This document shows, one piece after another, positions 47,318-64,000 of a DNA stretch of 64,000 nucleotides. The notes beneath the pieces are model-generated. The model saw only the letters and a program-made list of their open reading frames with translations. It did no database searches and was not told where the DNA came from. The position numbers and the translations under genes are program-made. The DNA lies in the NCBI GenBank assembly GCA_963811425.1, contig CAWERV010000009.1:115698-179697 (forward strand). The letters run 5' to 3'. Each line of letters starts with the position of its first letter. Positions within the stretch are counted from its first letter, which is position 1. The stretch is from an uncultured Acidobacteriota bacterium. Lineage in GTDB: Bacteria > Acidobacteriota > Thermoanaerobaculia > UBA5066 > Gp7-AA6.

Positions 47318-49014
47318 CTAGCCGCCCTTGCGGGCGCCCGGACCGCGGAGCGCGCGGCCGGCTCTGGCGCCCGTGGGCTCCCCGTCCCGGAGCACGTGGA
47401 CGCCGTTGACGAAGACGTCGCGCACGCCCACCGAGTACTGCTGCGGCCGCTCGTACGTCGCCCGGTCCCCGATCGTCGCGGGATCGAACACGACGACGTC
47501 GGCGAACATCCCGGGCTGGAGCAGGCCGCGCCGATCGAGTCCCAGGTTCGACGCCGGCAGCCCGGAGAGCTTGCGAACGGCCTCGGCGAGAGAGAGGAGC
47601 TTCTCGTCGCGCACGTACTTGCCGAGCACGCGGGCGAAGTTGCCGTACGCGCGCGGGTGCGGCGACGACTTCAGGAAGACGCCCTCGGGGGCCTGCGAGT
47701 CCGCGTCCGAGCCGAACGACACCCAGGGCAGGCGTGATCTCCTTCTTCACGTTGTCCTCGGACATCAGGAAGAAGAGGGCGCCCACCGTCGCATTCGACT
47801 CGACGACCAGATCGATCGCGACGTCCACCGGGTCCTTGCCGCGCTCTTTGGCGATGTCGGCGAGGGTCTTCCCCTGCAGGGGCTTCATGGCCTCGGGACC
47901 GACGGCGGCGACGAGGACCCGGGACGGCGAGCCCGTCAGGAGGCAGATGTTCTCCCAGCCATCGCCCGGCCGGCGCATCTCTCCCGCGATCTTTGCCCGC
48001 GCCTCCGGGTCCTTCAAGCGGCCGATCATCGCGTCGTTGCCGCCGTCGTGCGCCCAGGGCGGCACGCACGCGTCGAGGCTCGTTCCGCCCGCGGTGTACA
48101 GGTACATGTTGGCCGAGATCTTTCAACCCCTGGCGGCGCGCCTCTTCGACCCGGGCGATGACCTTGTCCATCTTCGGCCAGTTGGCCTCGCCCGCGGCCT
48201 TCAGGTGGTAGATCTCGGCCGGCAGACCGGCCTCGCGGCTGATCCGGATGAGCTCGTCCACCGCCTCCAGGAGTCCGTCCGCCTCGCTGCGCATGTGCGA
48301 GATGTACTTGCCCTGGTATTTCGCCGCGACCTTGCAGAGCTCGATCAGCTCCTCGGTCGTCGCGTAGTTGCCGGGGGCATAGATCAGCGCGGACCCGATG
48401 CCGAGGGCCCCGGCCTCCATCTCCCGGCGGACGAGCTCGCGCATCGTGTCGAGCTCCTCCGGGGTCGGCGCGCGCTTGTCGAAGCCGACGGTGTACGCCC
48501 GGAGCGTCGTGGCGCCGATGTACGAGGCCACGTTCTGGGAGATGCCCCGCTTCTCGAGGAATGCCAGGTACTCGGCGAGCGTCGTCCAGGGCATCTCGTA
48601 GTGAAAGTCGGTCTGCTGGGACTCGAGGAACTTCCGGAGGCGCTCGTTCAGCGGCCCCATCGAAAAGCCTTCCCCGAAGATCTGCGTCGTGATGCCCTGG
48701 CGCAGCTCGCTCTGGGAACGCCCGTCGACGATCAGGGACTCGGTCGACCACGAGAGCATGTTGACGAAGCCGGGAGCGACGGCCATGCCCTTCGCGTCGA
48801 CGACGCGCGCGGCAGCGGCCTTCGAGAGATCGCCGACCGCCGCGACCTTGTCGCCGCGGATCCCGACGTCGGCCACGCGGCCCGGGCTTCCCGTGCCGTC
48901 GTAGACCGTGCCGCCGCGGATCACGACGTCGAACGGCGCTTCCCCGGCGCGCAGCGCCACGGCCGCGAAGAGAACGGCGGCGAGGACGGCGGCCCGCGCG
49001 CCGAGCCGCCGCAT
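47318..49014 (-). CDS. Secreted N-acyl-D-amino-acid deacylase-like amidohydrolase (frameshifts near 48125 and 47735)
   Basis: FDVVIRGGTVYDGTG, APGF, YISHMRSE, EIYHLK, FGSD, HPRAYGNFARVLG, ADVVVFDP, VFVNG; N-terminal signal peptide. Confidence 0.85.
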
Positions 49015-51011
49015 CAGTACGTGGGCCCGATGTGGAGCAGGTTGCCTGCCAGGATCAGCCAGCTCATGCCGAGGCAGGCCAGCGCGATCAGCGTCTCGCC
49101 GAGTTTGCTCCAGATCCCGCGGACGCGGCTGCCCCACGCGCGGACGGCGTTGACGAGCGCCACCAGGGTTCCGATGAGCGTCAGCACCGCGAGGCCCTGG
49201 AACAGGTGCAGCCAGGGATCGCTCTTCGGGGTCAGCAGGTTCAGGTCCTCGAGGCCCTTGACGATGAGGATCCCGTACCCGGCGATCATCGTCACCTGAG
49301 CCAGGCACGCCAGGCGAGTCCAGAGGCGAAGCCGCCGCTCCCCGGGCGGCAGATCGAGCCGCCGGCCGTAGTGCCGGCGAACGAGCCCGCCCACGGGCCA
49401 GAGGATCAGCGCGAGCACGACGAAGCAGAGGCTGACGATCGCCACCGGGAGGATCAGCTTCGCGTCGAGGTACGCCGGCGGCCGGAAGAAGTCGAAGAAC
49501 GGATACTCGGTCACCAGCTCCTCGCGCCCGAGCGGATCCTTCTGAAAGACGACCTTCTCCTGGCCGTGCACGACGCGGAAGACGCCGTTGCCGATCGGCT
49601 CGAACGATTTCGGCTTCCCGTTGTAGCCGGTCAGCGCCGAGATCTCGACCGCGCCCTCGTCGGTCGGTGACGGATACACCTTGGTCTGCTCGAGCAGGTA
49701 GAGCAGCCGGAGGAACTTGCTGTCCGAGCGGCGGCTCACCAGGTAGTTGCCCGCGACTTTCCGTGCCTGTTCTTTCGCGTCGGCGACGCGCGGAGCGGCG
49801 GGCGGAGTCCAGGGGAAGTAGCGGTCGAGGAATTGCTCCCACAGGAGCGTGCGTCCGCTCCCTTTGCCGTTGCCGCCGCTGTTGTAGGAAACGAAGAATC
49901 CGACGTTCGCGTCGGGAATCAGGTGCAGATCGCTGTGGAACCAGTTGGTGTCGCCGCCGTGTCCGATGATCCGGTGCCCGTTGCGCGACTCCTCGTAGAA
50001 GCCGAGCGCCATCCCGTCGGTCTGGTCGGACTTGCCGCGCTGGCGCGCGTGCATGAGCTTCGCCGTCTCCGGCGACAGGATCCGCGCGCCTTCGTAGCTC
50101 CCGTCCTGCAGGTGCGCGAGCATGAAGCGCGCCATCGCGTCGGCGGACGCCGACAGCGCGCCGGCCGGCGCCGGGACGACGATCTCGAACGGCTTCGCCT
50201 TCTCCGAGGCGATCTTGTAACCCTTCGACATGTCGGGCTCGAGCGCCGCCGGCAGCGGCTGCTGGAAGCTCGCCTGCTTCATGCCGAGGGGTCCGAGGAT
50301 GAACTCCTCGACGTAGTTCGCGAAGGGCTTGCCGGAGACGCGCTCGACGATGTAGCCGGCCACGGCGGTCGCGTAGTTGGAGTAGGCGGGCGTCGAACCC
50401 GGCGGGAAGATGCGCTGCGGCTGGTGCGTCTTCAAGTGATCGCCCAGCGGCACGAGCATCTTCGGGTCGCCGACGATCAGGTCCTTGGCGTAGTCCTCGT
50501 AGCCCGGGGTATGCGTCATGATGTCGCGCAGCGTGATCGGCTTGCCGAACGCCTCGGGCACCTTGAAGTCGATGTACGTGTTGACGTCCTTGTCGAGGTC
50601 GAGCTTGCCCTGCTCGACCAGCTGCATGACCGCGGTCCAGGTGAAGAGCTTCGAGATCGAGCCGGGCCGGAAGAGCGTCGTCTTCCAGTCGACGGGGACG
50701 CGCTTCTCGACGTCGGCGAAACCGTAGCCCTTGCCGAAGAGGATCTTGCCGTCCTTGACGACGACGACGACGGCCCCCGCGATGTCGGCGGGCCCGAGCT
50801 GGGCGGGGACGAGGCCGTCGAGGAATGCCTCGACGTCCCCGGCCGTCATCGCCGGGGTGGACGAGCTCGCGGCGGCCGGCGGCGGCGCGCTGGACGCCGG
50901 CGCGGGCGAGGGCGGCGCGGCACCCGCGAACCCGGGTGCCAGCAGGGCGAGGACGGCCGCGAGCGCCGCTCTGCCGGCGCGCGCGCGAATCCCTTCAGAA
51001 CGCTTTCTCAT
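49014..51011 (-). CDS. Serine hydrolase (class C beta-lactamase / D-peptidase family) with C-terminal TM anchor
   Basis: Signal peptide, GSISK (SxxK), YSN, HGG, about four hydrophobic C-terminal helices. Confidence 0.9.
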   Translation of the reverse strand: MRKRSEGIRARAGRAALAAVLALLAPGFAGAAPPSPAPASSAPPPAAASSSTPAMTAGDVEAFLDGLVPAQLGPADIAGAVVVVVKDGKILFGKGYGFADVEKRVPVDWKTTLFRPGSISKLFTWTAVMQLVEQGKLDLDKDVNTYIDFKVPEAFGKPITLRDIMTHTPGYEDYAKDLIVGDPKMLVPLGDHLKTHQPQRIFPPGSTPAYSNYATAVAGYIVERVSGKPFANYVEEFILGPLGMKQASFQQPLPAALEPDMSKGYKIASEKAKPFEIVVPAPAGALSASADAMARFMLAHLQDGSYEGARILSPETAKLMHARQRGKSDQTDGMALGFYEESRNGHRIIGHGGDTNWFHSDLHLIPDANVGFFVSYNSGGNGKGSGRTLLWEQFLDRYFPWTPPAAPRVADAKEQARKVAGNYLVSRRSDSKFLRLLYLLEQTKVYPSPTDEGAVEISALTGYNGKPKSFEPIGNGVFRVVHGQEKVVFQKDPLGREELVTEYPFFDFFRPPAYLDAKLILPVAIVSLCFVVLALILWPVGGLVRRHYGRRLDLPPGERRLRLWTRLACLAQVTMIAGYGILIVKGLEDLNLLTPKSDPWLHLFQGLAVLTLIGTLVALVNAVRAWGSRVRGIWSKLGETLIALACLGMSWLILAGNLLHIGPTY

Positions 51012-51058
51012 CGATTCCTACCTCCCGCTCGCCCGCGGACGAGCGCGTTCCGTGAAGT

Positions 51059-53759
51059 CTACAGATCCAGCCTCAGGCCGAACTGGATCTGGCGCGGCCC
51101 GAACGCCCCGGCTGCGGTCCGCGTCGGCTGCGCGAAGTTCGGAGCCGTGAGGTTGCCGACGTAGCCCGTCGGGTTGACGTGGTTGAACAGGTTGAACGCC
51201 TCGACGATCAGCTGCAGGTTCATCCCACCGATCGGGATCTGCTCGGCCACCCGGAGGTTGACCGTCCAGAGGTCCTCGCCACGCTTCGAATTGCGCTCGA
51301 CCCCCGGCGGCCGGTCGTTGGGGCTGAAGGGGTTCACGCCCGAAATGACGTTGTAGGGCGGCGCCGACATGAAGTTCACGGTCCCGCCCAGCATGAGGCC
51401 GAAGGGGCCCTTCCAGTCGGCGCCGACGTTCAGCGTGTTGCGGATGTCGTTCGAGCTCGGGCCGTAGTCCTTGTCGGGGCTGTAGGCGTCGCTGATGAAG
51501 TACTGGTGGCCGTCGGTGTTGTCCTTCGAGGAAGCCAGCGTGTAGGCGAGCTGAACTCCGAGGTTCTGGCCGAAGCGCTTCTGAATCCCGACCTGCGCCG
51601 CGTAGTACTTGGACTTGCCCCCCGTCGTGGGGTCGTAGGCGACACCGACGTTCGGATCGGGCAACGTGGGCACGCCGTCGACGAGGATGGGCTGGTTGGC
51701 GTTGCGAAGGTAGAGGAGGTGATAGCCGCGCGCGTAGACCAGGTCGAGGCTCGCGGCGAGGTCGGGCGCCAGCTCCTGCTGGACGCCGAGGCTCCCGACG
51801 TTCTTGTACGGGGTCGTGTTGTTGCCGTTGAGCACCGAGACGTTCGGCGGCAGCGGGTAGGCCGAGCCACCCGAGCTGGGATCCGGGTAGCCGGGAACGA
51901 GGGTCGCCTGGATGTTGAACCGACCCGGCTCGAAGAGCGGAGGCGATGAGCGGCGCGTTCATCATGACCTGGTCGTAGTAGATGCCGAACCCGCCTCGAA
52001 TCGAGGTCTTTCCCTGACAGGTCGGATCCCAGGCGAAGTGGATGCGAGGACCGAAGTTCTGCCAGTCGTGCTTGGTGTAGATCTGGTCCTCGTAGTCCCA
52101 GCGCAGTCCCACGTTCAGCGTCAGGTTCCGAAGAACCTGCCACTGGTCCTGGACGAACAGGGCGACGATGTTGTTCGAGAGTTTGACGTAGGGATTGCCG
52201 GAGCCCTGGACGTAGACCAGGGGGTGCGTGAGCGGGTCGTCCGGGTTGTAGGGATCGTTGCTGATGAACTGAAAGAAGCCGTCGAAGTACTGCGGCACGT
52301 ACGCGTCGACGTCGATGTGGTTGTAGTCCACGCCGGCCTTGATCGAGTGTTCCCCGTTCGCTGCCGAGCGTGAGACTCACCGAATCCAGGAACTCGTACC
52401 GCTTTTCCTTTGCGGTCTGAGGCTGGTTGGGGAGCTTGCCCGAGAACAGCGAAGGCCGCTGAATCCCCGCGCAGCCCGGGCAATTCGGGATGAAGTCGTT
52501 GGACTGGTCGGAATACTGGAAGCGAGCCTCGTTCAACGCCATCGGCGAGATGATCCAGGAGTGCTGGAGCCCATAGTCGTAGTTCTGGGTGTCGAGCGTG
52601 GAGCCGGCCTGCGAGGTCACGATGGCCCCGCCCCCGGCGTCCAGGCCGACGTCGGAGTTCGTGGTCTTCGGGTTGTCCACGCGGAAGCGGAACGTCAGCG
52701 TCTGGCTGTCGGTGGGGTGAAAGTCGAGCTTGAGCACGGCGCGCGGCTCACGCAGATCCTGCGGGACGGCCGTCTCGACCGGCAGGCCGAGCGCCGCGAG
52801 GGTGGCCGGGCTCACGGCCACGACGGCGGTCGCGTCGCGCCAGGTCTGCTCGAAGGAGGCGAAGTAGAAGAGCTTGTCCTTCGCGATCGGCCCGCCCAGG
52901 AAGGCGCTGGCGATCCACTGGTTGAAGGTCGTCTGCTCCTTCTCGTGGGTCTCGGGATTCGTCTGGGCAAAGGCATCGCTCGCCGCCAGGGCATTGGGAC
53001 GGTAGTAGCCGGAGAGCCGCGCGTGGAGGTCGTTGGCTCCCGAGCGGGTGAGCACGTTGATGATCGCCCCCGAGGCCTGACCGTACTGGGCGTCGTACTG
53101 GCTCGAGAGGACCTCGAACTCGCCGATCGCGTCGGGCGAGTAGTCGCCGCGTGTTCCGCCGCGGATGCCCTCGTCGTTGCTCATGCCGTCGATCAGGTAC
53201 GTGTTGCTGGCCCCGTTGCTTCCCGCGGCCGAGATGGTCGACCCCTCCCCCGTGGAGTTGGTCGTGATCCCGGGCGTCAGGAGGATGAGGTTCTGGAAGT
53301 TGCGCTCCGAGAGCGGCAGCTCGTCGATCTGGCGGGTCGTGATGTTCGCCCCGATCGCGCTCTTGCTCGTGTCGATGATGGGCGCCTCGGCCTGCGACGG
53401 TCACCGTCTCGGCGACCTTCGCGACCTTCAGCCGGAAGTCGAGCGCGGCCCGCTGGCCGATCTGGAGGTTGATGCCCGACCGCACCTCCGTCGCGAAACC
53501 TCCGGCGGTCACGGTCACCTCGTAGCTTCCGACCGGCAGCTCGACCATCCGAAAGAGACCCGCCGCGTCGGTGCGTCACCGACCGCGTCTGGCTCGTCGC
53601 GACGTTCTTCGCCGCGACCGTGGCGCCCGAGAGCGGCCGGCCCGACTCGTCCGACACGCTGCCGTACACCGTGCCACCGACCGTCTGCGCCAGCGCCGCC
53701 GACGCCAGCAGTAACGCGGCTGCCGCCGCGGCCCAGGTTCTCGACGAGAATCGAATCAT
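51059..53759 (-). CDS. TonB-dependent receptor (Oar-like with carboxypeptidase-regulatory-like N-domain), several frameshifts
   Basis: Signal peptide, G.V.D.SG..L.GATV, LPVGSYEVTV, LPLSERNFQNL plug, AQYGQASGAIIN, FVQDQW, LNVGLRWDY, C-terminal PRQIQFGLRLDL. Confidence 0.85.
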
Positions 53760-53824: not shown

Positions 53825-53853
53825 AGAATGCATCATTCGTTGCCAGCTGTCAA
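53825..53853 (-). promoter_or_regulatory. Sigma70-type promoter of the TonB receptor block
   Basis: Perfect TTGACA (53853-53848), 17-nt spacer, CATTCT (53830-53825). Confidence 0.6.
53829..53844. promoter_or_regulatory. Palindromic operator candidate (TGCAAC-N4-GTTGCA consensus), receptor-proximal
   Basis: TGCATC-ATTC-GTTGCC, overlapping the spacer and -10. Confidence 0.6.
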
Positions 53854-53921
53854 TACGCTGACGGAAGCTAATAAACGCCGCATTCATGCCAGCCCGGATG
53901 CGCACTGTCGCGAGGGGTCTG

Positions 53922-53937
53922 CGCATCATGTATTGCA
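53922..53937. promoter_or_regulatory. Palindromic operator candidate, receptor-distal
   Basis: CGCATC-ATGT-ATTGCA, 93 bp from the proximal site. Confidence 0.55.
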
Positions 53938-53965
53938 TGGCCGCCCGGTCGGGACGGCGCGGGGC

Positions 53966-54736
53966 TCAGCGCTCGAAGACGTACAGGGCGGTCTCCCGGC
54001 GCGCCACCAGGCCGACGGCCTCGTAACCGCGGTCGAAGAGCGCCTCCGCGGTGCGGCGCAACGTCGCGCGCGCGCGGCGGGCCGCGGCCGGGTCGGCCGC
54101 ATAGAGCGCGGGGCCTCCCGCCGGAATCTCCATCGCGACCCGCCGCGCGGCCGGCAGATGGCGCGGGCTGGCCCGCGGGAGCTCCTCGGCATCGCGGGGC
54201 TCGGGCGCGATTCCCCGCGCGGCCCGTTCGACCTCGGGCCGATCGAGATCCCAGTGCACCTCGAACCGATCGGTCGGCAGCCCGCCATAGAGGCCTCCCG
54301 AGCTCGCCGTACACGTTCGGCAGGAACGTGCGTGGCGCGCGCCCGCAGACGCACGAGGTTCAAGCGCGCGTTGCGCACGAGCAGCGGGTCGTAGGTCCAC
54401 GTGACGCGCCGGATCCCCCGCGCGAGGCACCAGGCTCGCTGAAAGAACTTGAGGCGGACGGAGACGCCGCGGCCCCGGAACTTCGGCCGCACCGCCAGCA
54501 GGTGGGAGTGATGGCAGGGCTTTCCGAGATTGGTCCGCGCCAGTCCGTGGACGAAGCCCACGAGCTTGCCTCCGAGGAAAGGCGCCCGCGGTCATTCCTC
54601 CCACGTGGCCGACCACCTGCAGGTCGAAGGTCGACGGCAACTGCCGGTCTTCGAAGCCCCAGACCTGCCGCGCGACGGTCTGCGCCGCGGCGAACTCCGA
54701 GAGCCCGGAGAGCTCGCGAACGACCAGGCGGCTCAC
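53966..54736 (-). CDS. GNAT N-acyl(succinyl)transferase of the NSAR-associated type (frameshifts near 54580 and 54320)
   Basis: VWGFED, LVGFVHG, HHSHLLAVRP.FRGRGV..RLKFFQR, VTWTYDPL..RNARLNL.RL, GGLPTDRFEVHW; GTGA overlap with M20. Confidence 0.8.
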   Translation of the reverse strand: MSRLVVRELSGLSEFAAAQTVARQVWGFEDRQLPSTFDLQVVGHVGGMTAGAFPRRQARGLRPRTGADQSRKALPSLPPAGGAAEVPGPRRLRPPQVLSASLVPRAGDPARHVDLRPAARAQRALEPRASAGARHARSCRTCTASSGGLYGGLPTDRFEVHWDLDRPEVERAARGIAPEPRDAEELPRASPRHLPAARRVAMEIPAGGPALYAADPAAARRARATLRRTAEALFDRGYEAVGLVARRETALYVFER

Positions 54737-55854
54737 GCGCCCGCCGCCAGCGCCGCGAGCAGCGCCGCCCGCCGGGGCAGATCCGCGAGCGACACGAACT
54801 CTCCGCGCGCGTGGGCATTGCCGCCCATCGGACCGAGCCCGTCGAGCGTCGGGATTCCGGCCGCGGCCGTGAAGTTGCCGTCCGAGGCTCCTCCCACCCG
54901 CGCGGCCCCGAGCTCGAAGCCGAGCTCCGCGGCGACCGCGCGCGCCCGCTCGTAGAGCGCCAGGGAATCCGCCGTCGACTCGAGCGGCGGGCGGTCGACG
55001 CCGCCCTCGATCTCGACGACCACCCGGGAATCCGCGGGCCGGTAGCCGCGAACCGCCCGCTCGACGCGCTGCGCCTCCTCGACCGACCACACGCGGACGT
55101 CGACGGACAGTTCCCCGTATTCCGGAATCACGTTGGTCTTGTCGCCGCTCTTCGCCACCGTCGCGGCCACCGTGGTCTCCCGGGACCGGTCGGCCAGGGA
55201 CTCCAGGAACAGCACGCAGCGCGCGAGCTCCGCCAGCGCCGACGCCCCGCGGTCGGGGTCGAGACCCGCGTGCGCGGCGCGGCCGCGAAATCGGAGCCGG
55301 AGGAGCCCATGGCCCTTGCGCGCGATCTTGGCGGCGCCGTCGAGCGACGGCTCGACGACGAGGACGCTGCGATGGCGGCCCGCCAGCTCGAGCGTGAGCG
55401 CCCGGGAAGCGCCGCTGCCGATCTCCTCGTCCGGGACGAGGAGCAGCGTCGCCTCTCCGGCCCGCTCCTTCGCGAGCTCCGCCATGGCGTCCATGGCGAC
55501 GGCGATGCCCGCCTTCATGTCGAAGACGCCCGGCCCCGAAGCCCGGTCGCCTTCGACCCGGTACGGGAACTCGTCGAGCGTATTCCGGGCCCAGACCGTG
55601 TCGAGGTGCCCGAGGATCAGGACGCCGCCCGCGCCGCTTCCCGCACCGGCGACCAGGGCGTCGCCGCGTCCCGGGCACGGGCGAGTCTCGGCCGCGACAC
55701 CCCGTTCGCGCAGGCGATCGCGGATCCAGAGGGCCAGGGAGGAAACACACGCGGCATCCTCCGACGGGCTCTCCAGGCCGACGAGGGACGCGAGGTCCGC
55801 CGCGAGCCGCTCTCTGCGCCCTTCGAAGCGCGACAGCCAGTCCCGCGGCTTCAT
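54733..55854 (-). CDS. M20 metallopeptidase / desuccinylase (carboxypeptidase G2-like), cytoplasmic
   Basis: GHLDTV, GVFDMKAG, PDEEIGS, VVEP, GGASDGN, GGNAH; no signal peptide. Confidence 0.9.
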   Translation of the reverse strand: MKPRDWLSRFEGRRERLAADLASLVGLESPSEDAACVSSLALWIRDRLRERGVAAETRPCPGRGDALVAGAGSGAGGVLILGHLDTVWARNTLDEFPYRVEGDRASGPGVFDMKAGIAVAMDAMAELAKERAGEATLLLVPDEEIGSGASRALTLELAGRHRSVLVVEPSLDGAAKIARKGHGLLRLRFRGRAAHAGLDPDRGASALAELARCVLFLESLADRSRETTVAATVAKSGDKTNVIPEYGELSVDVRVWSVEEAQRVERAVRGYRPADSRVVVEIEGGVDRPPLESTADSLALYERARAVAAELGFELGAARVGGASDGNFTAAAGIPTLDGLGPMGGNAHARGEFVSLADLPRRAALLAALAAGA

Positions 55855-55855
55855 C

Positions 55856-56767
55856 TCACCGCTTCCGCGTTCCCTTCTCCGTGGGGGCGGCCTCGTCGGC
55901 GGGCGCCTGGGCGTACCAGCGGGACCCGGAGAGGTACTCCTTCTCGGTCTGTCGCAGGAGGGCGAGGGACCGCTTCGGCTTCAGCTGCGCGCACGCCACG
56001 AGGACCGCGTTCAGGACGGCCATCGGCGCGGCGTACGAGCCCGTGAAGGTCGACGCGGAAATCGGGGCCAGCAGATATGCGTCGCAGCAGCGGGCGATCG
56101 GCGTCGTGTCGCTGTCCGTGATGCCGAAGGTCGAGACCCCGCGGGCCTTCGCCTCGTTGGCCGCGTCGATCGTCACCCGGAGACACCGCCCGAAGCTGAT
56201 CGCGACGACCAGGTCGCGCTTGTCGAGCGTTCGCACCTTGTGCTGCAGGTTGCCGGCGCTGCCGACCGGCGCCTCCGCCTGGAAGCCCAGCGCCTCGAGC
56301 CCGTAGGAAAAGAACCACGCGAGCGAGGCCGCGAGGTCCACGCCGACGACCAGGACGGAACGGGCCCGATGGATGCGGCGCGCGAGGTCCACGGCCCGCA
56401 GGGGGTCCAGGCCCGAGCGGACCGCGTCGAGATTGTGGAGGTCCCTCTCGAGGCTGTGCCGCACGTGGTCGGCCACGCTGCGCTTCTCCCGGGCCGTCGC
56501 CTCCAGGATCCGGTACGGCGTCATTCGCTGGATGAAGTGCTCCCGCAGGTCCTTCAGGAAGTCGGCGTACTGGCGATAGCCGAGCGCCTGGATCGTCCGC
56601 ACGATCGTGGCGGGATCGACGCGGTACCGGCGCGCGAGCGCGCGCGAGGAAAGGAAGAAGGTCTCGTCGGGGTTCTCGAGCGCGGCCTGGATGATGCGGC
56701 GACGGCGCGGGTTCAGGCGCGATTGCGCCTCGGCCAGTCGCTGTTCGATCGAGGTGCGTGTCGACAT
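55856..56767 (-). CDS. RpiR/MurR-family transcriptional regulator (HTH + SIS)
   Basis: SSRALA..YRVDPATIVRTIQALGY..Y, SIS domain VVAISFGR, ITDSDTTP. Confidence 0.92.
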   Translation of the reverse strand: MSTRTSIEQRLAEAQSRLNPRRRRIIQAALENPDETFFLSSRALARRYRVDPATIVRTIQALGYRQYADFLKDLREHFIQRMTPYRILEATAREKRSVADHVRHSLERDLHNLDAVRSGLDPLRAVDLARRIHRARSVLVVGVDLAASLAWFFSYGLEALGFQAEAPVGSAGNLQHKVRTLDKRDLVVAISFGRCLRVTIDAANEAKARGVSTFGITDSDTTPIARCCDAYLLAPISASTFTGSYAAPMAVLNAVLVACAQLKPKRSLALLRQTEKEYLSGSRWYAQAPADEAAPTEKGTRKR

Positions 56768-56830
56768 GCGGGTCCCTCCACCAAGACCCCGGCAGGCGCG
56801 GTCGCCCGCTCCCGGGGCCCGGGTAGAATC

Positions 56831-58004
56831 TCACGACACCGAAACCGTCTTCCTCTCGCAGCGTGAATCGCTCGACGGTCTCGGTCTTTGCGGCCACGTA
56901 GTCCCGATCGATCTCGAACCCCAGGCCGACCCCGCGCGGCACCTCCACGGTCCCGTCCGCGCTCACCTCCACCTCCGGCGCGATGATGTCGCGGGCGAAG
57001 TAGCGGCGGCTGGCCGAGATGTCGCCCGGCAGCGTGAAGCCCGGCAGGCTCGCCAGCGCGATGTTGTGCGCGCGCCCGATCCCCGACTCCAGCATGCCGC
57101 CGCACCACACCGGCACGCCGCGCGACCGGCACAGGTCGTGGATCGCGAGGGCCTGCGAGTAGCCGCCGACCCGGCCCACCTTCAGGTTGACGATGTCGCA
57201 ACATCCGCGATCCAGGGCCTGCCGCGCCGCGCGGGCCGAGCCGATGCTCTCGTCGAGGCAGATGGGAGTCGTCAATCCCCGGCGCAGCTCGGCGTGATCC
57301 AGGAGGTCGTCGTGCTCGAGCGGCTGCTCGATCATCAGGAGGTCGAAGGCGTCGAGCTGTTTCAGGTGCGCCCGATCCGCCAGGGTGTAGGCCGCGTTGG
57401 CATCCACGGACAGCAGGATGTCGGGATGGTGACGCCGCACCTCCCGGACGACCTCGACGTCCCATCCCGGCTTGATCTTCAGCTTGATCCTCCGATAGCC
57501 GAGACGAACGAACTTCTCGATGCGTTCGAGCAGCCCGGAAATCTCGGCCTGGATCCCGAGGCTCACGCCGGCCTGCACCCGGGGCTGGACGCCTCCGAGA
57601 AGGCTCGCGATGGATTCACCCCTCGCCCTCGCGATCAGGTCGACGTAGGAGAGCTCCAGGCCGGCGCGGGCCATCGGGTGGCCCCGGAAGGGCGCGAGCC
57701 GATCCGCGAGCTCGGACAGGCCCGAGAGCGGCGCCTGCAGGACCGCGGGCGCGAAGTAGTCGCGCACGACGTGCAGGGCCGTCCCGACCGTTTCGTAGCT
57801 GTAGAGGGGTTCCTCGCCGGCGACGATCTCTCCCCACCCCTCGAGACCCTCCGCCTCCATCTTCACGAGAACGATCAGGCGCGACCGCACCCGGCCGAAG
57901 CTCGTCTCGAAGGGCTCGACGAGATCCAGGCGAAGAAGCCGGAGCTCGATCGCCTCGATCCGGAGGGGCGCGCTCGTCAGCGGCGCCGCGTACGGAGGGC
58001 TCAA
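56831..58004 (-). CDS. menC: o-succinylbenzoate synthase / N-succinylamino-acid racemase (enolase superfamily, NSAR/OSBS type); 1-nt frameshift near the 3' end
   Basis: PFETSFG, KLKIKPG (KxK), DAN, EQPL, LDES, NLKVGRVGG, WCGGMLES, GDISAS. TTG start approximate; probable true end ...RKTVSVS* at 56831. Confidence 0.9.
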
Positions 58005-58064
58005 TCGGACCGTCCGATCGGAGCGCGGCGCCGTTGCCCGCGGGCTCTCCCGTCTTCGACGTCG

Positions 58065-58080
58065 AACAACATTTGTTGCC
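58065..58080. promoter_or_regulatory. Palindromic operator candidate, NSAR-proximal
   Basis: AACAAC-ATTT-GTTGCC immediately downstream of the -10 box. Confidence 0.55.
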
Positions 58081-58082
58081 GC

Positions 58083-58112
58083 AAAGTACCAGAGCGCCGC
58101 GCGAAGCGTCAA
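58083..58112 (-). promoter_or_regulatory. Sigma70-type promoter of the NSAR-RpiR-M20-GNAT block
   Basis: TTGACG (58112-58107), 18-nt spacer, extended -10 TGgTACTTT (hexamer 58088-58083). Confidence 0.6.
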
Positions 58113-58158
58113 GAAGGCACCAGCCATGGGCCAATCCCAACGGGCCCGAAAGGCTCGC

Positions 58159-58174
58159 TGCATCATGTGTTGCA
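58159..58174. promoter_or_regulatory. Palindromic operator candidate, NSAR-distal
   Basis: TGCATC-ATGT-GTTGCA (11/12 to consensus), 94 bp from the proximal site. Confidence 0.6.
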
Positions 58175-58912
58175 ATGAGGCGGTCGGCGCGCCGGTATAG
58201 GCTTTGCGCCAACGTGGCGCTCGCGGCCGGTTCCGTTGATAAAAATGTATATAGGAATAGATAGTATTTATTATTATTAAGAAGAAGAATTATGGTTGAA
58301 GAAATTATATAGTGAAAGTAAAGATGATAATGTGCGATCAGGTGACGAGGAGAGCTCCAGGCCGGCGCGGCCATCGGGTGGCCCCGGAAGGGCGCGAGCC
58401 GATCCGCGAGCTCGGACAGGCCCGAGAGCGGCGCCTGCAGGACCGCGGGCGCGAAGTAGTCGCGCACGACGTGCAGGGCCGTCCCGACTGTTTCGTAGCT
58501 ATATAAGGGTTCCTCGCCGGCGACGATCTCTCCCCACCCCTCGAGACCCTCCGCCTCCATCTTCACGAGAACGATCAGGCGCGACCGCACCCGGCCGAAG
58601 CTCGTCTCGAAGGGCTCGACGAGGTCCAGGCGGAGAAGCCGGAGCTCGATCGCCTCGATCCGGAGGGGCGCGCTCGTCAGCGGCGCCGCGTAGGGAGGGC
58701 TCAATCGGACCGTCCGATCGGAGCGCGGCGCCGTTGCCCGCGGGCTCTCCCGTCTTCGACGTCAAACAACATTTGTTGCCGCAAAGTACCAGAGCGCCGC
58801 GCGAAGCGTCAAGAAGGTACCAGCATGGGCCAATCCCAACGGGCCTGAAAGGCTCGCTGCATCATCTGTTGCAATGAGGCGGTCGGCGCGCCGGTATAGG
58901 CTTTGCGCCAAC

Positions 58913-61489
<2,577 letters not shown>

Positions 61490-61493
<4 letters not shown>

Positions 61494-64000
61494 CGGTCGC
61501 GACAGGATCGAGGCTCGGACCGTACGAGATCCTCGGCCAGATCGGGGCCGGCGGGATGGGCGAGGTCTACCGCGCGAAGGATCCACGCCTCGGGCGCGAG
61601 GTCGCGATCAAGGTGCTGCCGCCGTCCTTCTCGCAGGACGCGGATCGGCTGCGGCGATTCGAGCAGGAGGCGAAGGCCGCGGGCGTCCTCAACCACCCGA
61701 ACATCACGGCCGTGTACGACATCGGCTCGCATGACGGCGCGCCGTACGTCGTCCAGGAGCTGCTCGAGGGCGAGACGCTGCGCCTGGCGCTCGCGAGCGG
61801 GAAGCTGCCGCAGCGCAAGGTCATCGACTACGCGCTGCAGATCGCGCACGGCCTCTCCGCCGCGCACGACAAGGGCATCGTCCACCGGGACCTGAAGCCC
61901 GAGAACCTCTTCGTCACGAACGAGGGACGCGTCAAGATCCTCGACTTCGGCCTCGCCAAGCTCACGCAGGTGGGCGAGGGCTCGGGCCCGCAAACCAACC
62001 TGCCGACCGCGGCCGGGACCGAGCCCGGCATGGTCATGGGCACGATCGGCTACATGTCGCCCGAGCAGATCAAGGGCAAGCCCGCCGACGCGCGCTCGGA
62101 CATCTTCTCGTTCGGCGCGATCTTCTACGAGATGCTCTCGGGCAAGCGCGCGTTCCACGCCGACTCCGCCGGCGAAACGATGGCCGCGATCCTCAAGGAG
62201 GAGCCGGCGGATCTCTCCGTCACCAACCAGAACATCTCGCCCGGGATCGAGCGGATCGTGCGCCACTGCCTCGAGAAGAATCCCGAGCAGAGGTTCCACT
62301 CGGCGCACGATCTCGCGTTCGACATCGAGGCCCTCTCGGGGACCACAGGCCAGGCGGCGGTCATTCCGTCGCGAGGGCGCGTGCCGCTCGTGCCGGCGCT
62401 CCTGGTTGCGGCGGGCCTCCTCGCCGGCGCAGGCTTCGCCTACTTTCTCCTGCGCGGCCGGACGGGAGCCGCGGCGGCGGCCGGATCGAGCGCGACGTAT
62501 CGCCGGTTGACCAACATGCCCGGGGCCGAGAACTCCCCTTCGCTCTCGCCCGACGGCCAGACGCTCGCCTTCGTCCACCGCTCCGGCAAGAAGCCGGACA
62601 TCTGGATCCAGCGCGCGGGAGGCCGCAATCCCATCGACCTGACGCCCGACTGCGATCGCGAGAGCTACTCGCCGGCGTTCTCTCCCGACGGCACCCTCAT
62701 CGCCTACGGCGCCCAGTGCGGCCAGGGAGGCCTCTTCGTCATGGGCGCCACGGGAGAGAACTCGCGCCGGCTCGTCAACGTCGGAAGCAATCCGGCGTGG
62801 TCTCCCGATGGAAAGGAGATCCTGTACTCCACCGAGCTCGTCGCCGGCCCCTACGGCCGGACGGGAACGAGCGAGATCTGGGCGGTCGAGCTCGCGAGCG
62901 GCAAGACACGCAAGCTCTCCGGGACCTTCGACGCCATCCAGCCGAACGTTTCGCCGCACGGACTGCGCGTGGCGTTCTGGGCGCTGCCGCCCGGCGGCAG
63001 CCAGCGCGACATCTGGACGATGCCCTACAAGGGCCTCGGCGCCGGCGAAAAGCCGGTGCCGGTGACGCAGGATGCCGCCGTCGACTTCAACCCGGTCTGG
63101 GGGCCGGACGGCCGGACTCTCTACTTCCTGTCCAACCGCAGCGGCACGATGAACCTCTGGCGCGCCCCGATCGACGAGGCCACCGGGCACACGCTCGGCG
63201 AGGCCACGCCGGAGATGCTGCCCGCGCGCGAGGTGGGCGGCCTCTCGTTCTCGCGGGACGGGCGCTACGCGGCGTACGTCGTCCGCGAGAACACCTTTTC
63301 GATCGATCGCCTCGCCTTCGACGCGAACGGCGCGCTCACGGGAAAGCCCGAGCCGGTCCTCGAGAGCTCCCAGGAAATGGCGGATTTCGACGTCTCGGCG
63401 GACGGCAAGTTCCTCGCCTTCGACTCGCGCGGCGGGGCGCAGGACGACCTCTTCCTGCTCGAGAGCGACGGCAGGAACCTGCGCCAGCTCACGGATGACG
63501 TGCCCCGGGACCGCGCGCCGAACTTCTCGCCCGACGGCAAACGCATCGCCTTCCATTCGGATCGCGACGGCCGCTACCAGATCTGGACGATCGAGCGCGA
63601 CGGGAGCGGCATGAAGCCGCTGTCCAAGGCCACGGACTTGATCATCGAGGCGCACTGGTCTCCCGACGGCCATGCCATCGCCGTCAACAGCGGCCACAAC
63701 AGCTCGATCCTCCGGCTCGACGACAAGGGCGCGCTCGCCCGGGTCGAGCCCATTCCCGCCCCGACGCCGGAGACGTTCTTCTATCCGTTGGCGTGGACCG
63801 CCGACGGGAGCACTCTCGTGGGTTCCCTCGTGCGGCTCAGCGATCTCACCGGCCAGGCTGTCGCCGTCTATGCCCCCGGACCGGGCGCCGTCGTGAAGAC
63901 GGTGCCCAACACGGAATCGCCCTCCCGCGTTCGCCGCGGGGCGGTCATGGGCAACCGCTATCTCCTTTATGCAGAGATTGACGGGCTGTTCGTCATGGAT
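61490..64000 (+). CDS. Second Ser/Thr kinase with TM and PD40/TolB-like propeller (partial, runs off the window)
   Basis: GTGA overlap; manual translation [65 protein letters not shown] / PAFSPDG / PAWSPDG / PNFSPDG repeats. The frame was spot-checked as the same at 62402 and at 64000. Confidence 0.9.

Follow-up and report, generated by a model that had tools for sequence, protein, structure and literature searches.

The window analysed here is a 64,000-nucleotide stretch of DNA from an uncultured Acidobacteriota bacterium, and our subject is a locus in it in which two putative promoters share one palindromic motif. All genes of the locus lie on the minus strand. The first promoter precedes an operon in the order racemase-rpiR-M20-GNAT, encoding an N-succinyl/N-acylamino acid racemase, an RpiR/MurR-family regulator, an M20 family metallohydrolase and a GNAT acyltransferase. 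The second precedes a TonB-dependent receptor gene. Each promoter region carries two copies of the motif. Comparison with related genomes makes it probable that the four sites are operators of the RpiR/MurR-family protein encoded at 55856-56767, which would act as a repressor switching both promoters. The mechanism, a local repressor with palindromic operators, is ordinary. What is new is the family member itself, with its atypical SIS pocket and a regulon related to amino acids.

A first-pass annotation of the window had reported 16-bp palindromes in two pairs, one in each promoter, and had proposed that the RpiR protein of the locus joins both transcription units into one regulon, possibly by looping the DNA. 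Sequence lookup returned the four 16-mers exactly where they had been placed, reading TGCATCATTCGTTGCC (53829), CGCATCATGTATTGCA (53922), AACAACATTTGTTGCC (58065) and TGCATCATGTGTTGCA (58159) on the forward strand, with pair spacings of 93 and 94 bp. A third pair (58765, 58858) had been overlooked and is dealt with below together with the quality of the assembly. The refined core of the motif is a 14-bp imperfect palindrome, GCAAC(A/G)-NN-TG(A/T/G)TG(C/T) in gene orientation.

For genuine operators, the first-pass annotation had expected a motif above background frequency in the genome and conserved in orthologous promoters, and both expectations were borne out. Concerning the first, we used the shared pattern CAWCATNNNTTGC, which was defined post hoc from the sites. 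It matched 6 times in the window against 0.05 matches expected, and 0/100 shuffles reached 6. Outside the locus, no match to this pattern was found in the 4.41-Mb, 31-contig genome, so that the pattern is unique to the locus. We also scanned the genome with a position weight matrix (PWM) built from 28 unique orthologous sites. The six top scores (21.7-29.0) all fell at this locus, led by the racemase distal site (29.0, the best in the genome) and including the receptor distal site (24.9), while the next best score was 17.5. The PWM matches at or below 17.5 elsewhere in the genome were single and mostly within coding frames. One of them, a weak match outside the window (C10:526406, TGCAGGAAATGATGCA, PWM 16.3), lies at the junction of two divergent open reading frames (ORFs) and could be a degenerate extra site or a chance occurrence. 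We rejected the idea that one promoter region arose as a duplicate of the other, as they gave no alignment outside the sites.

Conservation was examined in the 22 loci obtained by scanning GTDB species representatives with the RpiR protein. In 16 of the 22, all from Thermoanaerobaculia and with RpiR proteins 77-97% identical to ours, the order racemase-rpiR-M20-GNAT-receptor is kept. With a matrix derived solely from the four sites of the window, sites were found at the same four places in these 16 loci, as far as the contigs reach, and nowhere else in the approximately 15 kb inspected per locus; the racemase distal site is kept in 16/16. When the intergenic regions of the 16 loci were aligned, each of the two displayed four conserved islands, namely the distal site, a TTGAC(A/G) box, a -10 region and the proximal site, while the remainder was largely unalignable. 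The sites are the main conserved islands of these intergenic regions. TTGAC is invariant in both -35 boxes, and the -10 region is TG-n-TAnnnT for the racemase and CAT(T/C)CT for the receptor. The distal sites showed no conserved promoter elements of their own in the same alignment. A strict sigma-70 consensus scan returned no promoter at its thresholds, and the two promoters are therefore drawn from conservation alone.

The footprint of the proximal sites on these promoters is constant. In the racemase promoter, the distance from the start of the -35 box to GCAAC is 32-33 nt in all loci. GCAAC is then 2 nt past the -10 box, so that the site lies over the expected transcription start site (TSS). 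In the receptor promoter the corresponding distance is 10-11 nt in all loci, and the site takes up the 17-nt spacer, with an overlap onto the -10 box. The earlier placement of one site of each pair at the -10/TSS region accordingly holds, with this difference in detail between the two promoters. Judged from the sequence, both would be classic repressor positions.

The motif also follows the RpiR subfamily beyond this gene order. Motif and subfamily occur together in more than 70 loci, which come from four acidobacterial classes and differ in gene arrangement. In Vicinamibacteria (RpiR 66-72% identical), rpiR and the racemase operon are not neighbours. The rpiR gene is followed there by a convergent beta-lactamase-fold gene, which is in turn divergent from a TonB-dependent receptor gene, and two sites (TGCAACAnnTGATGCT) lie between these last two genes. 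A profile-based scan gave 296 loci, the best 80 of which were all from Acidobacteriota. In Blastocatellia, Pyrinomonadaceae and Chloracidobacterium (RpiR 58-64% identical, GC 50-60%), a TonB-dependent receptor gene is usually divergent from racemase-rpiR, with a single near-perfect palindrome, TGCAACAAATGTTGTA, between them. In 34/35 such loci, the 250 bp preceding the racemase gene contain a site with a PWM score of at least 19, compared with 4 sites of this strength in the remainder of the sequence (305 kb). Six loci of Blastocatellia/Pyrinomonadaceae (L058, L060, L075, L085, L091 and L099) have two sites 28-31 bp apart, start to start, while most of their relatives have a single one.

The helix-turn-helix (HTH) segment of the RpiR protein, LENPDETFFLSSRALARRYRVDPATIVRT, is invariant across all these classes. 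This matches a motif that is likewise unchanged from class to class. The RpiR protein of the locus, to which we assign the motif, is the sole RpiR-family protein of the genome. Taken together, the co-occurrence of motif and subfamily, the footprint on the promoters, the invariant HTH and the absence of a second RpiR-family protein in the genome support the earlier proposal that operators of this protein would tie both transcription units into one regulon.

We propose the following mechanism. The HTH pair of an RpiR dimer would recognize the imperfect palindrome, GCAAC(A/G)-NN-TGNTG(C/T). As the proximal operator would overlap the core of each sigma-70-type promoter, past the -10 box and over the TSS for the racemase operon and within the -35/-10 spacer for the receptor operon, bound repressor would block the binding of RNA polymerase or the formation of the open complex. 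The first promoter would drive the racemase, rpiR, M20 and GNAT genes, that is, a trio for D-to-L amino-acid conversion together with its regulator, and with rpiR inside its own target operon the regulator would control itself. The second promoter would drive the TonB-dependent receptor, the beta-lactamase-fold hydrolase and further hydrolases. Each proximal operator has an auxiliary partner 87-94 bp further upstream, and the two may be bridged by a tetramer of RpiR (a dimer of dimers), with the DNA looped between them. An inducer, probably one other than a canonical sugar phosphate, would release the repressor.

Several observations weigh against this scheme. All sites have the same orientation and a conserved asymmetry (GCAAC vs GATGC), which is unexplained by a simple symmetric-dimer model. 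The -10 boxes are weak and, as mentioned, the strict sigma-70 scan was empty. The other points concern the loop, for which the evidence is divided. In its favour, the operators of the 16 loci are spaced at 87-94 bp for the racemase and at 88-93 bp for the receptor, averaging about 91 bp in either promoter, and this distance has been kept although the spacer sequences diverged with many indels. By contrast, the length of the leader, from the proximal site to the ATG, varies from 57 to 87 nt. Against the loop, the range of 7 bp corresponds to about two thirds of a helical turn, and the spacing is therefore not phase-locked; nor do the spacings of the two promoters of one genome co-vary. Outside Thermoanaerobaculia we found one site, or pairs 28-31, 41, 78, 100, 103 or 131-134 bp apart, and a loop of about 91 bp is thus not a family-wide requirement. 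Moreover, the conservation of spacing among fairly close relatives may in part be due to shared descent. A universal helical phasing was considered and rejected, since 28-31, 41, 78, 87-94, 100, 103 and 131-134 bp fit no single period. The looping claim of the first-pass annotation consequently stands in part: the spacing is kept in both promoters, but without phase lock and without conservation outside Thermoanaerobaculia.

By analogy with known systems, the likeliest role of the distal sites would be to let an RpiR tetramer bind cooperatively and loop the DNA in between, and we put this forward tentatively. A real possibility, if not our first choice, is that RpiR occupies all four sites independently and forms no loop. 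The proximal sites would then repress, and the distal ones would raise the local concentration of repressor or block read-through from the upstream gene. The lack of phase lock agrees with this, as does the fact that other classes manage with one site or with other spacings. As for read-through, no terminator-like site was found between the GNAT gene and the receptor promoter (the terminator scan gave one chance-level match, within rpiR), the receptor distal site lies approximately 30 nt past the GNAT stop codon, and in loci L005 and L008 the racemase distal site comes directly after a co-directional OsmC gene. On the other hand, independent sites do not account for an average spacing of about 91 bp that is shared by two non-homologous promoters, where the distance from the distal site to the -35 box differs by about 22 bp (54-61 bp in the racemase promoter vs 77-83 bp in the receptor promoter), and the solved members of the family are tetramers.

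That RpiR might instead activate transcription, or regulate it in both directions, when bound at the distal sites (around -80 to -100), in the manner of activation by the NanR of Streptococcus pneumoniae (SpNanR) or of the target switching of RccR, we regard as improbable. SpNanR does provide an RpiR-family precedent, and promoters with weak -10 boxes might need help. However, the same shift of about 22 bp in the distance to the -35 box counts against this, and the proximal sites overlap the core promoter where a repressor would classically be placed. Still less probable is that a regulator other than the RpiR protein binds the motif. Some loci do have further regulators nearby (in the window, for instance, Ser/Thr kinases; in L005, a sigma-54 activator), but these neighbours are not conserved, and RpiR alone accompanies the motif in every gene arrangement. 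As the motif is without another genomic copy and the next PWM matches are single and mostly coding, a local regulator is to be expected, and a palindrome with 6-nt half-sites fits the known operators of the RpiR family. Chance recurrence or an RNA-level leader element, in favour of which it can only be said that the racemase proximal site is partly transcribed, is effectively refuted: the match counts, the top six PWM scores and the conservation in more than 70 loci speak against it, the distal sites lie upstream of the promoters, Rfam gave no match at E <= 1, and the leaders folded no better than shuffled sequences (z = -0.7 and +1.0).

The primary structure of the RpiR protein was considered with respect to the effector. 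The protein, of 303 aa, has an N-terminal HTH_6 domain (PF01418, 31.4 bits, cut-off 28.3, residues 7-77) and a C-terminal SIS domain (PF01380, 58.2 bits, cut-off 25). Its best PDB match, 3sho, is the structure of a SIS domain from an RpiR-family regulator (E = 1e-19). The canonical phosphosugar loop of SIS domains, S-x-S-G-x-[ST], is absent; the protein has SFGRCL where VvNanR (4ivn) has SSSGST and RccR (8ju9) has SQSGRS. The segment ISFGRCLR is invariant in all orthologues aligned, and the longer ISFGRCLRVT (RpiR residues ~190-199) is invariant in more than 16 orthologues. The closest solved structure, the unpublished 3sho, has a similar loop, SVWRYLR. The change bears on the type of effector and not on membership in the RpiR family. 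As SFGRCL replaces SxSGxT, the effector is probably no canonical sugar phosphate, and the sequence suggests that it is not a phosphosugar. Loops of the ISFGRCLRVT/SVWRYLR type may define an RpiR subfamily with non-phosphosugar effectors.

In the literature we found no paper linking RpiR to OSBS/NSAR-type racemases or D-amino-acid pathways. A more far-reaching reading would make this protein the first RpiR/SIS regulator dedicated to the salvage of D-amino acids and D-peptides, with a pocket, SFGRCLR, whose two invariant Arg residues sense a non-phosphorylated carboxylate (an N-succinyl amino acid or a D-amino acid), and with tetramer loops of about 91 bp at two promoters in Thermoanaerobaculia. 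In this complete form we consider it speculative and rather unlikely.

The features of the locus are collected in Table 1.

Table 1. Coordinates of the sites, promoter elements, genes and assembly features of the locus (positions of the window)
Feature	Position	Strand	Remarks
Racemase operon distal (auxiliary) operator, putative	58159..58174	-	gene orientation (58174-58159) TGCAACACATGATGCA
Racemase promoter proximal operator, putative	58065..58080	-	gene orientation (58080-58065) GGCAACAAATGTTGTT
Receptor operon distal operator, putative	53922..53937	-	gene orientation (53937-53922) TGCAATACATGATGCG
Receptor promoter proximal operator, putative	53829..53844	-	gene orientation (53844-53829) GGCAACGAATGATGCA
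Racemase promoter -35, inferred, TTGACG	58107..58112	-	TTGAC invariant in 16 loci
Racemase promoter extended -10, inferred, TGG-TACTTT	58083..58091	-	18-nt spacer from -35; TG-n-TAnnnT conserved
Receptor promoter -35, inferred, TTGACA	53848..53853	-	TTGAC invariant in 16 loci
Receptor promoter -10, inferred, CATTCT	53825-53830	-	16-locus alignment
N-succinyl/N-acylamino acid racemase (OSBS/NSAR subfamily)	56833..58004	-	Pfam MR_MLE_N + MR_MLE_C; TTG start
RpiR/MurR-family regulator (HTH_6 + SIS), proposed repressor	55856..56767	-	Pfam
M20 family metallohydrolase	54733..55854	-	Pfam Peptidase_M20 + M20_dimer; NCBIfam matches all under curated cut-offs
GNAT acyltransferase	53966..~54745	-	weak Acetyltransf_1 match in one fragment; frameshifted here
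TonB-dependent receptor, N-terminal CarboxypepD_reg domain	51020..53759	-	Pfam on fragments; ATG at 53759; frameshifted
Beta-lactamase-fold serine hydrolase, 3' of receptor	49014..51011	-	Pfam Beta-lactamase E = 3e-61
Amidohydro_3 fragment, 3' of beta-lactamase-fold gene	47318-49000		Pfam
Third site pair	58765..58873 (58765-58780 + 58858-58873)	-	inside duplicated copy; pattern and PWM matches
Insert, 105 bp, 24% GC	58238..58342	.	separates both copies; unique in genome

Among the enzymes, the racemase is the most clearly assigned, with 339.7 bits to TIGR01928 (cut-off 200.65) and E = 1e-109 to N-acylamino acid racemases in the PDB. The M20 and GNAT genes lie downstream of rpiR in the same operon as this OSBS/NSAR-subfamily racemase gene. 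The M20 protein is a candidate N-succinyl-L-amino acid desuccinylase, and the GNAT protein a candidate D-amino acid N-succinyltransferase, whose orthologue in L005 is intact (290 aa) and also matches Acetyltransf_1. A gap of 204 bp separates the first operon from the receptor unit. The receptor is likewise intact in L005 (911 aa), with matches to OMP_b-brl_4, CarboxypepD_reg and Plug. Orthologues of the beta-lactamase-fold hydrolase are the ones flanking the sites in Vicinamibacteria. The Amidohydro_3 family includes N-acyl-D-amino acid deacylases, and the fragment found here is in keeping with a D-amino-acid theme in the receptor operon. Two tandem paralogous genes (58912-61490 and 61490-64000; period 2577 bp, stretches 87-89% identical) are oriented divergently from the racemase promoter. 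They read as Ser/Thr protein kinases, with the motifs GxGGMGEVY and HRDLKPEN, after which repeated SPDG-type beta-propeller units follow. The distal operator is approximately 40 nt from the likely kinase start.

Concerning the third site pair, the segment 57640-58234, with the 5' end of the racemase gene and its promoter, recurs at 58343-58933 (~590 bp, 98% identity). The closest relatives, L001 and L002, are collinear and have a single copy without the insert. Because of this, and because the insert is unique in the genome, we judged that the duplicate copy and insert are probably an artefact of long-read assembly and the third operator pair spurious. Frameshifting indels are present at the 3' end of the racemase gene, where a 1-nt indel near 56850 shifts the frame ~15 codons before the true TGA, in the GNAT gene (54280-54600) and in the receptor gene (53560-53580 and 51900-53200), all of which are intact in the orthologues. 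In view of these base-level errors, the ORF calls of the window need care.

To our knowledge, almost nothing is known of transcriptional regulation in Acidobacteriota, a dominant soil phylum. The analysis yields a precise motif for the operator, one candidate for the regulator and a regulon with defined members, consisting of a TonB-dependent receptor, hydrolases that look D-specific and an OSBS/NSAR-type D-to-L pathway, and this set of motif, regulator and regulon is kept across at least four acidobacterial classes. A system for scavenging D-amino acids and peptidoglycan peptides thereby becomes directly testable. The results also point to an RpiR subfamily whose SIS domain, to judge from its sequence, probably binds something other than a sugar phosphate.

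The proposed arrangement can be compared with several known systems. In its architecture, promoter operator plus upstream auxiliary operator of the same consensus, it resembles the lac repressor system of the LacI/GalR family, in which looping takes place between primary and auxiliary operators and the O1-O3 distance is 92 bp. In both cases a dimer of dimers could bridge the two sites. On the other hand, the protein families are unrelated, looping at the present locus is inferred, and its spacing is not phase-locked.

Within the RpiR family, MurR of Escherichia coli is a tetramer in solution and has been proposed to bridge two inverted repeats overlapping the -35 and -10 boxes (PMC9177960; summarised in bioRxiv 10.64898/2025.12.10.693482). 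Like this repressor of murQP, our protein has an HTH_6 + SIS architecture, is a proposed repressor and would control its own gene. The operators of MurR, however, are adjacent, 17 bp apart and spanning ~47 bp, compared with ~91 bp from centre to centre here, although the twin sites 28-31 bp apart in some Blastocatellia/Pyrinomonadaceae loci are reminiscent of them. MurR recognizes N-acetylmuramic acid 6-phosphate through a canonical SIS phosphate loop, in place of which our protein has SFGRCL, and both the operator sequence and the regulated pathway differ. The NCBIfam models for MurR and HexR scored the RpiR protein of the locus far under their cut-offs. HexR and RccR of Pseudomonas are RpiR-family tetramers that bind the pseudo-palindrome TGTAGT-N-ACTACA with 6-nt half-sites (PMC11014249). 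The motif described here is also a palindrome with 6-nt half-sites, but the half-site of HexR and RccR is a different one, their effector is 2-keto-3-deoxy-6-phosphogluconate and their central carbon targets are spread genome-wide, whereas the present regulon is strictly local. NanR of S. pneumoniae, an RpiR-family protein in dimer-tetramer equilibrium with a palindromic site, has been proposed to bridge or loop distant sites as a tetramer (bioRxiv 10.64898/2025.12.10.693482). Family, type of site and the idea of bridging are shared with our protein, but NanR activates, responds to N-acetylmannosamine-6-phosphate and is not known to have an adjacent second full site in its promoters.

As for the pathway, the D-to-L amino acid operon of Geobacillus kaustophilus contains a GNAT succinyltransferase, an NSAR/OSBS racemase and an M20 L-desuccinylase (bioRxiv 10.1101/2022.03.03.481873). 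The same three enzyme families are united in one operon here, with specificities that are putative. In contrast to the Geobacillus operon, the acidobacterial one includes an RpiR regulator, and shared operators would couple it to a second operon that encodes a TonB-dependent receptor and serine hydrolase.

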